Positions 1 to 12,704 of a stretch of DNA of 12,704 nt are shown here, piece after piece. Location: UHGV virus genome UHGV-0239954; one strand, 5' to 3'. The translations under genes were made by a program, and so were the position numbers. The notes beneath the pieces were generated by a model that did no database searches, had not been told where the DNA came from, and saw only the letters and a program-made list of their open reading frames with translations. Numbering within the stretch: the stretch's first letter is position 1; every line of letters starts with the position of its first letter. The stretch comes from a virus.

Positions 1-1364
1 TCTTCCTTTCTTGATTCTTTATAAACAATTGCTGCTGATTTTGCATACCATGAGTCAAAAAACCATTCTGCTTCTGTTGATGGAATGAAGCTCTTTTCTC
101 TTTTTGCATGCGAATTTTGATCGGTATCGGTTTTAATATCATTGAACCAAAAATTTGCCGACTGATAATTATCCTTCTCGTATCTTTTTATACCATACGG
201 ACCTGCTAGTTTTTTAACTATTTTTAGAACTTGCTCTTTTCTTCTGGTGTTTATCTTTGAAAGATTTGTAGGATAAATAACATTAAGTAAAGCCGCATCG
301 GCTTCTCTGTAATGTTTATCTTTTTCCAGATAACCTGGGGATTCTCCCCCTAAATCAAGCTGTAACGTTATTCTTTCATAACCTTTATCTATGAGGTGGT
401 TCAACCTCGTTGTTGAAAGAGTTTCATCCAGTTCATTGACTTTAGCTTCGCGTAGTAAATCAGAGACAAAAACAGAGTCTTTCTTCGAGAGTAGGTTTGA
501 CAAACGTTCCAGTCCAGAGGTCACCAGTGCAACGGAAGATGTGTTTAATCGGGCATCTTCTTCCCATGCTCCGGAATCTTCCATAACATAGAAATTGGCT
601 TTATCCAGATAAGCAATCAGCAGCGCAACCGACTTTAATCGGTCACCTTTTTGCCAATCTTCAGCGTTAATAGTACCAGTGTTGATTGCTTGTATAAGGA
701 GATCAAGGTAAAGACCTAACGCATCATTTTGTTTATGGTTCCACAGCTGCGGCTTGCCTTCTTCCTGCACATCTGCCATCACGGGGGAGTTGCTGTCAAA
801 TCGGATATGCACAGCATTCATTTGCACGGGAACTCCATCCAGTCGTTTTGGGTTGCTAATGACGTCCTGCATCCGCTTAATCTGGTCGGGCGTAGACATA
901 TAATCCCACAGGGTGAGCAGAACCTTTTTTGCGGCTACACTATTTCCCTGATCTGATACTAATGCCATATAGCCCCATAAACTATCCCTCAACCAGACAG
1001 CATCATAGTGGGTTTGTGCCGCTGTTTTGTCATCTTCGAAAGTAGAAGCAAGAATAAACGTTCCCCAGGGTTTCTCCGTCAACGTTAACTTTCGTGTGTT
1101 TTCTGTTAATGTTAGCAATCCTTGAATTTCGTCTTTGGTATAGTGGCTCTTTATTTCATTTTGTAATTTGGCTGAGTGAATCAAAAGACGATAATTAGGA
1201 TACTTATCTGGATTTAACGATAAATAACTTTTATCTGTTGCTGCCCCCGTGGAATTAAGAATGTTAAATACAGATTCACTCGTCACTTCTGCCCCTGTCG
1301 CCTGGCATGTGCCGCACGAAAATATACCAGCGAGCAGAAGAGTTAATGCAGATTTCCCTTTCAT
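1..1364 (-). CDS. Secreted glycoside hydrolase family 15-like protein (glucoamylase/trehalase-like); 3' end truncated by window edge
   Basis: Uninterrupted minus-strand frame from ATG at 1364-1362 to position 1, translated by hand with no stop; absent from the ORF track because it has no stop in the window. N-terminus MKGKSALTLLLAGIFSCGTCQA resembles a signal or lipoprotein peptide. Motifs HYDAVWLRDS and DSGAWEED resemble the GH15 W-x-RDS and catalytic WEE motifs. Region is visibly AT-rich compared with the element to its right. An in-frame alternative ATG lies at 1376. Confidence 0.55.
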   Translation of the reverse strand, partial: MKGKSALTLLLAGIFSCGTCQATGAEVTSESVFNILNSTGAATDKSYLSLNPDKYPNYRLLIHSAKLQNEIKSHYTKDEIQGLLTLTENTRKLTLTEKPWGTFILASTFEDDKTAAQTHYDAVWLRDSLWGYMALVSDQGNSVAAKKVLLTLWDYMSTPDQIKRMQDVISNPKRLDGVPVQMNAVHIRFDSNSPVMADVQEEGKPQLWNHKQNDALGLYLDLLIQAINTGTINAEDWQKGDRLKSVALLIAYLDKANFYVMEDSGAWEEDARLNTSSVALVTSGLERLSNLLSKKDSVFVSDLLREAKVNELDETLSTTRLNHLIDKGYERITLQLDLGGESPGYLEKDKHYREADAALLNVIYPTNLSKINTRRKEQVLKIVKKLAGPYGIKRYEKDNYQSANFWFNDIKTDTDQNSHAKREKSFIPSTEAEWFFDSWYAKSAAIVYKESRKE

Positions 1365-1597
1365 AAAATATTCCATCAATCGTTTGTTAAAAGCGTAGAT
1401 AACCACTTATTTAACAACTTGAAAATAAGGTGTTTTACCTGGGTTGTTACAAAAGGATTGCATTGCGTAAACGCTTTTTATTTACAACAAAATGGGGAAG
1501 TATTACGGCGATTGCGAAAAGTCTGAAGCGATTGAATTAAGATAATATAGAAAATCAGATACAGCAAAAATGGCAGATTGATCAGGTGAAGATAAAT

Positions 1598-1625: not shown

Positions 1626-1713
1626 ATAGCTAACCCATTGAATTGTGAACCAAAATAAGTAATCGCGGTACTTATCCCGGTAGTTGGTAGCGGTAGATTA
1701 CAAGGTAATTACC

Positions 1714-2940
1714 ATGCCAATCAAGAAGACTTCTTATCTTTATGCAAACAAAGATGGGATATTCATCTTTCAAATCTTTATCCCGGTGTACATGCGCCAC
1801 TTATGGCACGGGCGGCGCTCACTCAAGAAATCGACAGGCACGCGGGACATCATGCAAGCTCGCATATTCCGTGACCAATACTTATTAGAGTTCCGAAAGC
1901 TCCAGCTCATGATGAAACCGGATAACCCTATAAACCGGATTCATTCTGCTATTTCAGATCTTCACTTACTGGCGGGAATATCCAGCGACATTACCGCGCC
2001 CGTAACTACTCCAGCAGAACGAGGGAAACCAGCGTCGCCAAAATTGACAGATGTCAGTAAAGAATATGCAGAGCAATACAAAGATCGGCGCTCTTATTCC
2101 ACATTGAGTAAATCCGCTCGCGCTGTATCAGCATTCACTAAATCAACTAAGCGCCCAACAATTACAATAAACGGAATCGGGCGGCGGCTCGTCTCTGACT
2201 TTCTGAAAGCGAACCAAGATAAGTTTTCCCGGCAGACGCTGCAAAACTGGTTAACTTGCTTAGGTACGCTGTACGACTTCGCCCGGCGTAAATATGACAA
2301 TATCGCCCCTGATAATCCCTTTCACGGCCACAATCTGGAAGCCCGTCAGACAAACGAAAGTTACCAGCCGTTTGAACCGCACCAGCTACAGACATTAACA
2401 AAAAAGGCAGGTGACGAAATAAGGGATGTAATAATAATCGGGCTGTATTCCGGGATGCGTCTTGATGAAATAGCCAGCATTAAACGGGATGAGGTTGTCA
2501 CCATCGACGGCGTGCGGTGTTTCTATGTCAGTAAATCAAAAACAAAGGCGGGTATAAGGCATGTCCCTGTACACTCGCTGTTATTTGACATTGTTGATAA
2601 ATACCTCGCGCAAAACAGCGGGGAGTACCTGCTCCCCCAATCCAACAAAATTAAACGCGCGGATGGTAAACGTGGGCCGTGGTATTCTCAGACATTTACC
2701 CGCTTACGTCGCCGGGTACTACCAACAGCCACAGAGCGCCAGTGTTTCCACTCCCTGCGTGGTCACTTCATCACCTGCTTAGACCGGGCAGGTGTACCAG
2801 AACAGCGCATAGGAGCTATTACCGGGCATACAGAGAAAAAGGCAAAGACGGAAGCATTTAAAACGTACAGCCAAGGGGCTGGGATGAAAGAACTATCTGA
2901 ATACGTAGAGCTGGTAAGTTATCCAGAACTTGAATCATAA
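1714..2940 (+). CDS. int: Tyrosine recombinase / phage-type integrase
   Basis: ORF 1684-2940 in the track begins with TTG; first ATG is at 1714, preceded by AAGG 8 nt upstream. The C-terminal half has tyrosine recombinase hallmarks: conserved Arg in GMRLDE, H-x-x-R in FHSLRGH, and C-terminal Tyr candidates in KTY/SEYVEL. Position beside a tRNA-derived att site fits. Confidence 0.88.
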   Translation: MPIKKTSYLYANKDGIFIFQIFIPVYMRHLWHGRRSLKKSTGTRDIMQARIFRDQYLLEFRKLQLMMKPDNPINRIHSAISDLHLLAGISSDITAPVTTPAERGKPASPKLTDVSKEYAEQYKDRRSYSTLSKSARAVSAFTKSTKRPTITINGIGRRLVSDFLKANQDKFSRQTLQNWLTCLGTLYDFARRKYDNIAPDNPFHGHNLEARQTNESYQPFEPHQLQTLTKKAGDEIRDVIIIGLYSGMRLDEIASIKRDEVVTIDGVRCFYVSKSKTKAGIRHVPVHSLLFDIVDKYLAQNSGEYLLPQSNKIKRADGKRGPWYSQTFTRLRRRVLPTATERQCFHSLRGHFITCLDRAGVPEQRIGAITGHTEKKAKTEAFKTYSQGAGMKELSEYVELVSYPELES

Positions 2941-11366: not shown

Positions 11367-11719
11367 TCTGTCCTCCTTAGTAGTTACCATCATTGCAATG
11401 GCGTCGGAGTTCTGTCTCTCTTTAGTAGTGATCTTCATCCAGTAATTTGGATTAAATGCAGACACGGCGGGCATTGCAGCGAGATGGAGAGTAGGCGGGC
11501 TTGCGGTTTCAGTCTGCCTTAGTACAAGTTTCTAGTGGTCGGTAGCCTTTCCCTTATTAGTAGCTCTCATTTATCCGGGGCTTGTCTTCCCACACAGTAG
11601 CCGTCTTCTAAAGCAACCACACCACAATCCACTACTGGCAAGGAGTTAGCAGACACGGTGATGTAGGCTACTCAAGTGTGGATTTGTAGGCGTTTTATAG
11701 TATCTGTCCTTCTTATTAG
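11367..11719. repeat. Iteron-like direct repeats (consensus about TCTGTCCTYCTTAGTAG), candidate origin or operator array
   Basis: Copies at 11367-11383, 11411-11428 and 11703-11719, with diverged copies at 11513-11525, 11546-11563 and 11581-11600. All are in the same orientation with irregular spacing, immediately upstream of the operon and next to an AT-rich tract (about 11725-11830). Confidence 0.5.
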
Positions 11720-11831
11720 ACACCTTTAAATTTCATTAATAAATACAGTTAGTTAAACGGTTATCTTTATTACTTATAAATTTCACAGATCAATAAATTA
11801 AAATTGATCGGAATTATCAGCTTTAATTTTC

Positions 11832-11851
11832 TTGACAGCTATTTGTATAAT
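11832..11851 (+). promoter_or_regulatory. Promoter-like hexamers TTGACA / TATAAT (non-canonical 8-bp spacing)
   Basis: TTGACA at 11832-11837 and TATAAT at 11846-11851 are perfect consensus hexamers but too close to act as one sigma70 promoter. Each could pair with a weaker partner. No plus-strand ORF follows. Confidence 0.2.
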
Positions 11852-12029
11852 GGTTTTAAGAAGTTGTATCGGAGTGAGCGACTGGCAGTGAGCGTAGCGA
11901 ACGATAAGCCAGTCGGCGAAGAACGAAGAGTATGAGATGACTTGTCATCGAATACGATGAGTGATTGAGCGGTACGAACGGAGATACGCTGTATAACAGT
12001 TAGAACAGTTAACAAGCTGATTAATGCTT

Positions 12030-12194
12030 TCAATGATTATCTGAATCAGTGTTATCAATTCCGAAATAACTCTTCCTCTCCTGTATTGATTCAATCATTT
12101 CTTTCATTTCAAGAATCACTACCAGCTCAGCTAATAACCGTCTCAGTTCAACATTTGAATCATTAGCACGACACTTATTTTCTGAGTATTCCAT
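12030..12194 (-). CDS. Hypothetical small protein (54 aa)
   Basis: Not in the ORF track (under 60 aa). ATG at 12194 preceded by GGGAG 8 nt upstream. Sequence MEYSENKCRANDSNVELRRLLAELVVILEMKEMIESIQERKSYFGIDNTDSDNH. Lies between the GC-rich structured region and the iteron region. Confidence 0.3.
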   Translation of the reverse strand: MEYSENKCRANDSNVELRRLLAELVVILEMKEMIESIQERKSYFGIDNTDSDNH

Positions 12195-12299
12195 ACGGTC
12201 AACTCCCTACGGTATAAGTCCATTCCAATCCGTTCACAGATTACATTGCTGAATGATCATCAGACAAGTGGCAGTCATCATCACCAAGTTAGAGTCGTC

Positions 12300-12600
12300 T
12301 CGCTACATATCCCCGCCGGATTGCCAGCGCGGCTAACACGGTTGTGAGGAGCGCCGAGCATCACAGCGGACGCAGGCCGATGAACGAGCCGTAGGTGAGT
12401 GAAAGCGGACTCGCGGACGCGAGAAGCGCAGCAGCAGGCGGCGACTGATAAACGAGCCAGACAGGTGAGTGCAAGCAGGCGTAAGCACTGCACCGTTGAG
12501 AGGTGTGGAGACGGCGGAACGTCTCCGCGTTAGGGAGGTGGATTTGGGGAGGATGTGCAAGGCACACCTCGCTCCACCCACGGGGTGTCGGTGGGTAGGG
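12300..12600. ncRNA. GC-rich structured non-coding region with paired direct repeats and hairpins (candidate regulatory RNA or leader)
   Basis: All three plus-strand frames contain stops; the minus-strand ORFs overlap in multiple frames and have R/S/P-rich translations. Two ~28-nt direct repeats (12369-12396 GATGAACGAGCCGTAGGTGAGTGAAAGC; 12437-12466 GATAAACGAGCCAGACAGGTGAGTGCAAGC). Perfect hairpin GGAGACG-GCGGAA-CGTCTCC at 12498-12517. Further stems at 12453-12483 and 12563-12587. Confidence 0.25.
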
Positions 12601-12704
12601 GTATAACGCTAATTGGTTAAGTGTACACATGTACGCTGAAATCATTAAAAGCCTATAGAAACAGCATGTAACCCAGCACCACGACATAACCAATTATCGT
12701 TGAA

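Follow-up and report, generated by a model that had tools for sequence, protein, structure and literature searches.

In other satellites and temperate phages, the control region beside the main operon holds a maintenance or immunity gene, and in the satellite P4 this region specifies the CI RNA, which is ∼70–80 nt long. How satellites of virulent phages are kept silent and how they detect their helpers is, to our knowledge, not understood. The PLE satellite of Vibrio cholerae makes the IIR transcript, which is flanked by inverted repeats and is homologous, in antisense, to the leaders of PLE open reading frames (ORFs) (PMC7567579). Here we analyze positions 12,300–12,600 of UHGV virus genome UHGV-0239954 (12,704 nt, the whole of which is referred to below as the window), a GC-rich region of a satellite-like mobile element that may encode a structured regulatory RNA. 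The window is identical to part of the chromosome of Escherichia coli strain 5735 (NZ_CP154887), in which the integrated element spans ∼14 kb as judged from annotation and domain scans. Coordinates are those of the window unless a related locus (L number) is named; coordinates in L001 equal the window coordinate plus 2301.

In a profile search, a core of ∼140 nt (12291–12432) was present in exactly one copy per element in all 37 related loci. It was found in three lineages whose helicase is only 46–47% identical (nhmmer E values of 1e-7 to 1e-9), and it is carried by 56 of 5,426 complete E. coli genomes (∼1%), including that of enteropathogenic E. coli (EPEC) strain E2348/69, without being annotated in any of them. 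The relatives come from other E. coli strains, Enterobacter, Trabulsiella, Rosenbergiella, Kosakonia, Citrobacter, Cronobacter, and metagenomes, and they share an architecture in which a helicase operon is followed by a gap of 1–1.8 kb with at most one annotated small ORF, a recombinase, cargo, and a tRNA gene. The position of the core is fixed, as it lies between the main operon and the serine recombinase gene, antisense to both, in all relatives. In the window lineage the gap is a 1.8-kb stretch that separates the minus-strand operon, at its first gene, from the gene for a 207-amino acid serine recombinase, and its sole annotated gene is a 54-amino acid ORF (12030–12194). The region adjoins the AT-rich control region of the mobile element, at whose head an earlier account based on the sequence alone (the preliminary description) had placed it.

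Outside these elements, BLAST found no homologue of the core in 50,697 phage records, and a search of a plasmid collection returned a single match, to a record that is actually an E. coli chromosome. Two pattern scans of IMG/VR gave 0 and ∼120 matches, the latter at chance level and none confirmed by nhmmer. No known repeat family that would include the region was found in the phage, plasmid, or IMG/VR collections.

Judged from the sequences available, it is the comparison with relatives (∼10 independent lineages), and not any feature of the single sequence, that carries the real signal. The parts of the RNA-like element, in 5′ to 3′ order, are as follows.

11846–11985, plus strand: candidate distal promoter (TATAAT at 11846–11851) and putative purine-rich leader remnant, read from sequence and composition
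12233–12260, plus strand: putative proximal sigma-70-like promoter site, TTCACA-16-GATCAT (L001 14534–14561), matching 9 of 12 positions
12300–12307, plus strand: CACTAC box (TCGCTACA here), the conserved 5′ edge of the core in alignments A2 and A3
12316–12354, plus strand: 5′ domain of ∼40 nt with three helices, alpha, beta, and gamma, that covary in alignment A3
12316–12318 with 12339–12341, plus strand: helix alpha
12327–12330 with 12351–12354, plus strand: helix beta
12336–12338 with 12343–12345, plus strand: helix gamma
12354–12362, plus strand: nearly invariant block CCGAGCATC, seen as invariant alignment columns, with a GAGCAT core invariant in all lineages
12363–12420, plus strand: module X, a purine-rich variable insert that is the first direct-repeat copy, delimited by lineage comparison
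12421–12432, plus strand: nearly invariant block GAGAAGCGCAGC, from lineage alignments
12433–12491, plus strand: module Y, the second direct-repeat copy and a paralogue of X, delimited by the X/Y alignment and by an alignment gap in L003, L004, and L005
12492–12604, plus strand: lineage-specific 3′ domain rich in G-runs, from sequence, fold, and lineage comparison

The 5′ domain was compared among the 23 distinct sequences of alignment A3, from which the three helices were themselves picked by eye. Standard pairs fill 92.2% of the cells in these helices, compared with 25–44% when the partners are slid by 1–3 columns, a control whose contrast is inflated because the helices were derived from the same sequences. 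The covariation score was 0.381, compared with 0.137 in shuffled alignments, and was reached by none of 500 shuffles. Both sides have changed in 8 of the 13 pairs, and ∼15 independent compensatory events were counted in 12–13 pairs. Helix beta occurs as GCC/GGC, GCG/CGC, GTA/TAC, GTC/GAC, ACA/TGT, and GCCA/TGGC, and the outer pairs of helix alpha take five and four pair types among the lineages. Helix alpha crosses beta, and one of its arms falls in the loop that gamma closes, so the three helices cannot be nested together and imply a pseudoknot or else two alternative conformations. A single nested consensus fold was rejected, since RNAalifold gave only a weak one (−10 kcal/mol); with ribosum scoring it returned a different nested fold that keeps alpha and has a covariation score of 0.184, half of 0.381. 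The core shows the covarying base pairs by which a structured RNA is recognized and lacks the folding energy by which one is also recognized. Comparative alignment, the check proposed in the preliminary description, showed that homologous elements conserve the region with compensatory base changes, and the structured RNA considered there stands to that extent, although no Rfam family matches it.

The features visible in the single sequence are less telling. Positions 12301–12600 are 63.7% G+C, with a GC skew of +0.20 and an AT skew of +0.25, and the composition profile of the plus strand is purine-skewed, with 6–16 T per 80 bases. No plus-strand ORF of ≥50 amino acids is present in the region, which is non-coding on that strand as first described. 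Three minus-strand ORFs (70, 82, and 110 amino acids) have no Pfam match, and they are not conserved frames because a 40-nt indel between homologous elements falls inside them; since open frames are also expected on a pyrimidine-rich strand, we rejected protein coding there and agree that these ORFs are compositional. One pair of direct repeats (12364–12390 and 12432–12458; 27 nt, 74% identity, spacing 68 nt) and a second (12393–12406 and 12463–12476; 14 nt, 93% identity, spacing 70 nt) merge, with two small gaps, into a single 45-nt alignment. When the 301 nt were shuffled with dinucleotide content kept, 28 of 1000 trials reached the best gapless repeat (p ∼0.03), which is mildly unusual, so the repeats ∼68 nt apart that drew attention to the region are present and rise weakly above chance. 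The perfect 7-bp hairpin reported with them (GGAGACG/CGTCTCC at 12507–12513 and 12520–12526) is likewise present, and a stem of that length was reached in 149 of 1000 dinucleotide shuffles (p ∼0.15), a frequency not above chance. Taken alone, these features are barely distinguishable from what chance gives in GC-rich DNA.

The variable parts differ sharply between lineages. Module X is lacking in the L002, L006, L008, L023, and L033 lineages, which carry Y only; E2348/69-like elements and most other lineages carry X only, module Y being absent from most lineages; and both are replaced by ∼12 nt in the most distant lineages. The minimal versions of the element, in L030 and L034, measure 110 nt. 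Because whole lineages lack X, Y, or both, the direct repeats are dispensable internal modules and not target sites, contrary to the role as repeated target sequences first suggested for them. Module X has candidate internal helices (by eye and RNAfold), with G-U pairs possible on the plus strand only in the window, L160, L024, and L011, and in the minimum-energy fold the 3′ half of module Y forms a strong local hairpin with 12484–12493. The 3′ domain contains the 7-bp hairpin and an 8-bp long-range complement (12500–12507 with 12563–12570). This hairpin is kept unchanged in L003, L005, L006, and L033, and in L035 and L037 its GGAGA/TCTCC basal stem is kept under a longer apex. The 3′ part exists in at least three unrelated versions among the lineages, and in most of them the 3′ domain is replaced by a short hairpin followed by the T-run AGGGGAAGAACCCTTTTTTG. 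The invariant blocks CCGAGCATC and GAGAAGCGCAGC are each single in the window, and no second copy of the 19-mer at the CACTAC box was found there.

Upstream of the core, the proximal promoter site would give a transcription start near 12267, ∼35 nt before the conserved core. The distal TATAAT site (11846–11851) was not reported by the promoter scan. The leader remnant behind it begins with GTATCG and in this resembles the purine-rich leaders, ∼300 nt long, that relatives of the E2348/69 type have (L024, L003, and L159–L162; by eye).

Based on these comparisons, we tentatively propose, at somewhat less than an even chance, that approximately 12268–12600 encode a satellite-specific, structured, non-coding RNA with a regulatory function, read from the plus strand. 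Transcription would begin in the AT-rich control region and proceed away from the main operon with its helicase and head genes. The RNA would have four parts: at the 5′ end, a small conserved domain folded as a pseudoknot or as one of two alternative hairpins; CCGAGCAUC and GAGAAGCGCAGC, two blocks that hardly vary and are single-stranded; the direct repeat, made up of one or two purine-rich modules that are dispensable; and, at the 3′ end, a G-rich part that differs between lineages. Being poor in U and C, such a long untranslated transcript might also be protected from Rho. We favor a regulatory RNA because the element holds the control-region position of a maintenance regulator and no candidate for a protein repressor lies there. 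The strict conservation of the unpaired blocks, compared with the free variation of the 3′ part, suggests recognition by a conserved partner, protein or RNA, from outside the element. Our guess is that this partner, which could be a protein or RNA of the satellite, the host, or the helper phage, recognizes the invariant blocks together with the 5′ fold and that their interaction decides whether the element stays quiescent or is expressed or replicated on induction by the helper.

The most distant relatives have a gene for a Rha-family regulator (Phage_pRha) on the same strand as the HNH-helicase operon, between this operon and the motif (L028/L029 3938–4579). Its product is possibly a protein regulator that acts alongside the RNA-like element.

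We infer transcription of the element, its direction, and the ends of the RNA from several features of the sequences. In the supported pairs, 248 of 258 cells are canonical when read on the plus strand and 226 of 258 when read on the minus strand, and wobble pairs that are possible on one strand only number 23 for the plus and 1 for the minus strand. Promoter-like sites lie directly upstream of the core in two elements, that of the window and L035; in the latter, the core adjoins the AT-rich control region. T-runs occur immediately 3′ of the motif in several lineages, inside a tract that is otherwise 5–12% T, and a scan reported a plus-strand terminator-like site in E2348/69. In the genome record of that strain (NC_011601), a transcript of plus orientation would lie on the record's minus strand and extend from ∼4,851,765 or ∼4,851,470 to ∼4,851,243. 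The motif is not the 3′ untranslated region of the recombinase gene, since that gene has a strong terminator of its own. On these grounds, we put the chance that the plus strand is the active one at even or slightly better. A 28-amino acid plus-strand ORF after the terminator-like site of the E2348/69 type, which seemed conserved in four lineages, was rejected because it is interrupted by stops in L159, L160, and L162.

Several observations weigh against this reading. The folding energy of 12285–12610 (326 nt) is modest on the plus strand (z = −1.7) and better on the minus strand (z = −3.1), and that of the core is ordinary in 14 lineages (z of −0.8 to +1.6 on the plus strand and −1.4 to +0.7 on the minus strand). 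One invariant G-U, which may be no real pair, contributes 19 of the 23 plus-only wobble cells. Mismatches that become G-U pairs on the minus strand were seen in helix alpha of L014, as a C-A at A3 columns 35:50 in the L003 type, and in L161 in the stem of a second conserved block described below. Matches to promoters and terminators occur at the frequency expected by chance, and L031, L026, and L027 have lost either the stem of the terminator or its T-run. Seen from the minus strand, the tract would be a long untranslated leader of the main operon, rich in C and in pyrimidines, and resembles a Rho loading region. A search of the supplements to the Hfq RIL-seq study of EPEC E2348/69 gave no coordinate match for the element. 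With only ∼10 independent lineages available, modules X and Y admit two mutually exclusive pairings, each with one compensatory change, and any fold of X, Y, and the 3′ domain is provisional. Finally, neither repeated blocks nor unusual complementarity to any gene leader was found in the element: duplex energies to 17 gene leaders of the window and 14 of L024 all lay within z = −1.1 to +1.7 of shuffles, and 9–11-mers shared within the element are scattered, with none at leaders.

A more specific version of the RNA proposal, which we think has little chance of being right, is that the two-fold RNA serves as a helper sensor, without a protein repressor, in a new kind of satellite that parasitizes virulent T7-like (Autographiviridae) phages and that the RNA switches on, or primes through an R-loop, the expression and replication of the satellite. 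In that case, the single-subunit RNA polymerase of the helper might transcribe the RNA. The CACTAC box resembles positions −7 to −2 of T7-group promoters. No repeated phage-type promoter motif was found in the satellite, and inspection by eye of the intergenic regions of phage Lidtsur revealed no shared motif.

Elements of the E2348/69 type, but not the window, carry the sequence TTATCACTATAGAC in their AT-rich control region, on the minus strand and directed toward the main operon (L024 8655–8680). It contains TCACTATAG, is conserved in L003, L024, and L159–L162, and TCACTATAG is identical to positions −8 to +1 of T7-group RNA polymerase promoters; it could be a promoter for a helper polymerase or a coincidence.

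The DNA on both sides of the RNA-like element has features of its own. Two overlapping minus-strand ORFs lie to its left, at 12030–12194 (54 amino acids, with a good Shine-Dalgarno sequence) and 11839–12033 (64 amino acids, with a TTG start), both inside an AT-rich insert that separates the purine-rich leader remnant from the core. Only the 54-amino acid ORF is annotated in RefSeq, and only in strain 5735; sister lineages keep similar DNA without an intact frame, and the ORF is not conserved in L002, L033, or L030. A second conserved block (block 2) lies between the motif and the recombinase terminator (L001 15005–15200; L024 9270–9400). It is C-rich on the plus strand, its minus strand has a G-quadruplex-type run (GGGATGGGGCAGGGGAAGGG), and in it is a 9-bp stem whose two sides have changed in a compensatory way from one lineage to another (TCTTGATGC/GCATCAAGA compared with TCTCGATGT/ACATCGAGA). 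On the right of the RNA-like element is the following repeat.

12605–12622 with 12684–12701, no strand assigned: 18-nt inverted repeat AACGCTAATTGGTTAAGT/ACATAACCAATTATCGTT, 89% complementary

The 61-nt AT-rich spacer between its arms contains the palindrome TGTACACATGTACG. In L006, L033, L011, L030, and L034, the same position is filled by different inverted repeats or by iterons; the distant L030 and L034 have three iteron-like repeats of ∼26 nt, and a GTACA..TGTAC palindrome is found in nearly all lineages. Rather than being part of the RNA, the inverted repeat (12605–12701) is probably a site in the DNA that marks the right-hand boundary of the element, and the region that it spans is a candidate origin, operator, or recombinase site.

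An alternative that assigns the signal to the other strand, and that we regard as unlikely, is that the minus-strand transcript is the active one. The motif would then be near the start of the main operon's long untranslated leader, which is rich in pyrimidines, and act in cis as an attenuator or antitermination element, in which pairing of alpha or of gamma and beta would decide whether, after helper infection, polymerase gets through a C-rich, rut-like tract that is sensitive to Rho and goes on to transcribe the genes for the helicase and the head. The tract is indeed 60–70% pyrimidine on this strand, with C above G for 300–700 nt as in a Rho loading site, the stretch in the window folds better there (the z of −3.1 given above), and two mutually exclusive sets of covarying pairs are what attenuators have. 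In the window lineage, the 54-amino acid ORF with its good Shine-Dalgarno sequence lies just downstream of the motif, and farther upstream is the conserved stem of block 2, whose mismatch in L161 becomes a G-U pair only on the minus strand. However, this ORF is not conserved in sister lineages, and canonical pairing is lower on the minus strand (226 compared with 248 of 258 cells). In addition, the AT-rich promoter-like region is found on the operon side of the motif and not upstream of it, the two being directly adjacent in L035 and L037, and no minus-strand promoter was detected between the recombinase terminator and the motif.

A second alternative is that the region is part of a replication origin, in which an R-loop or primer would arise beside the AT-rich DNA with its inverted repeat or iterons, either from a transcript rich in purines and G or from the folded single strand, and the SF2 helicase of the satellite or the replisome of the helper would load at the R-loop, as with ColE1 RNA II or at the primary origin of T7. 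The T7 primary origin consists of a promoter and AT-rich DNA, and origins in the Autographiviridae are primed by transcripts. In keeping with this idea, the satellite has a capsid related to those of the Autographiviridae and an SF2 helicase as its only replication gene, with neither a primase nor a Rep initiator. Its G-rich, T-poor plus strand, with G-runs at the 3′ end, reads into the AT-rich segment flanked by inverted repeats and, in distant relatives, into the three iteron-like repeats. The idea is weakened because the best conserved part of the element, the 5′ fold, is the part farthest from the AT-rich DNA, whereas conservation is lowest in the DNA next to the putative origin; nor would a mere R-loop tract be expected to have helices that cross and show compensatory changes. 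We consider this role decidedly unlikely.

A function of the double-stranded DNA, as a binding platform for the serine recombinase or for helix-turn-helix (HTH) proteins or as a packaging site for the helper terminase, is improbable, since although the recombinase gene is adjacent in all relatives, the two blocks hardly vary whatever structure surrounds them, and the thermodynamic stability is unremarkable, the invariant blocks are neither palindromic nor repeated, recognition of a duplex does not explain the compensatory changes in three helices, and the absence of anything similar from the 50,697 phage records argues against a shared pac or cos site. Packaging, which the preliminary description had listed among the possibilities, has nothing in its favor. 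Even taken together, roles in the DNA or at an origin are possible but doubtful.

The proposed plus-strand RNA belongs to an element whose other genes were identified by annotation and domain scans, as follows.

1684–2940, plus strand: tyrosine integrase
Minus strand: genes for an endonuclease VII-like protein, an HNH endonuclease, the major head protein, a scaffold-like protein, and several small HTH proteins
Minus strand: 629-amino acid SF2 DEAD/DEAH helicase (PriA/RecQ-like)

By this gene content, the element is a phage satellite. The domain scans detected no primase, portal, or large terminase in it. Its head protein is ∼55% identical to major capsid proteins of the Autographiviridae, such as that of Escherichia phage Lidtsur (genus Bonnellvirus, phiKMV-like podophages), and a capsid of this type of its own suggests a virulent, T7-like helper. 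P4 is marked by its alpha primase-helicase, sid, psu, and delta; PICIs by alpA and pri-rep; and cfPICIs by portal, protease, and terminase genes. Set beside the P4-like, PICI, cfPICI, and PLE families, the element has a tyrosine integrase, endonuclease VII, HNH, head, scaffold, SF2 helicase, and HTH genes. Full-text searches of the literature yielded no description of this satellite family or of its RNA-like element, and the family is apparently uncharacterized.

The serine recombinase (Resolvase and HTH_7 domains) is encoded on the minus strand and starts ∼430 nt to the right of the window, with variable cargo and then a tRNA gene beyond it. The cargo between recombinase and tRNA is of a defense type and includes a TIR-domain protein (L002 10358–11497), DUF3800 with a 136-amino acid partner (L004, L026, and L031), DUF2971 (L035 1171–2010), and an Eco29kI-type restriction-modification pair (L038 576–2431), so this slot is apparently a hotspot for defense genes. 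In strain 5735, identical small islands next to tRNA-Gly flank the satellite (L001 391–3763 and 19404–22776). They contain a 545-amino acid integrase, a DUF4145 protein, and two hypothetical proteins, and window positions 1–1462 are the end of the left copy; the duplication looks like a tandem or nested integration.

Should the element prove to be a functional RNA, it would stand for a new RNA family, one that Rfam 15 lacks and that is confined to a family of enterobacterial satellites that carry their own capsid gene and defense cargo and whose carriers include the model pathogen EPEC E2348/69. An RNA at the position of the master regulator would offer a directly testable handle on how the helper is detected. 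Were the element an origin or a leader attenuator instead, it would still mark the control point of the satellite.

We compared the element with known RNA systems. A cmscan search of the whole window with all 4227 models of Rfam 15 gave no matches at gathering scores, and at E ≤ 10 over 11700–12704 it gave only two chance matches, to a plant snoRNA and to 5.8S rRNA. A scan for tRNA and tmRNA found nothing. A retron-like RNA with a partner gene to the right of the window, as envisaged in the preliminary description, was rejected: the gene there is the serine recombinase, no ORF of ≥70 amino acids in the next 3.7 kb has a reverse transcriptase (RT) domain, no Rfam retron (msr-msd) model matches, and no RT was called in any related locus. 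The eight other ORFs of this size within L001 15005–18750 have no Pfam match; a tenth ORF, which begins at 18746 on the edge of the flanking island, lies outside this set.

An IS110 bridge RNA was also rejected. The neighboring enzyme is a small serine recombinase of the Resolvase/invertase type and not a DEDD/Tnp recombinase with an RNA in its 5′ untranslated region, and, unlike a bridge RNA, the motif lies 3′ of the recombinase gene in the opposite orientation. The variable parts of the RNA do not follow the integration site, as four RNA types are all found at tRNA-Leu.

The put RNA of phage HK022, like other cis-acting antitermination RNAs, resembles the element in being a compact conserved fold just downstream of a promoter-like site (L035 and L037) with alternative pairings possible. 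It differs in that the motif of other lineages is ∼330 nt from the nearest conserved promoter-like site, no downstream plus-strand gene is present into which antitermination could act, and neither sequence nor Rfam similarity was detected. ColE1 RNA II/RNA I offers a different likeness, that of a long, untranslated, G-rich, folded transcript that runs toward an AT-rich region in a replicon without an initiator protein of its own. There is no homology to it, however, and the conservation in our element is at the 5′ fold and not at the 3′ end.

Closer parallels come from satellites and phages. The CI RNA of P4 and the C4 RNA of P1 and P7 are non-coding RNAs in a control region that replace a protein repressor and have repeats nearby, a likeness that the preliminary description had drawn. 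The comparison with P4 CI did not hold in its particulars, as the covariance scan gave no Rfam match, target repeats are absent, and complementarity to leaders is lacking. In addition, the RNA of our element would be transcribed away from the operon, whereas CI and C4 are processed from the operon leader; its repeats are internal and dispensable, with no complementary sites of the seqA/seqC kind in the operon leaders; and at ∼150–330 nt it would be larger than CI. The PLE IIR transcript is similar in that it is non-coding, belongs to a satellite whose helper is a virulent phage, and comes from an ORF-free gap with inverted repeats (PMC7567579). In our element the inverted repeat lies beside the putative RNA, and there is neither homology to leaders nor any sequence relation to IIR. 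Because P4 CI and PLE IIR (PMC7567579) are known, a non-coding RNA in the control region of a satellite has precedent, and beside them we place the element described here as a candidate new RNA family.

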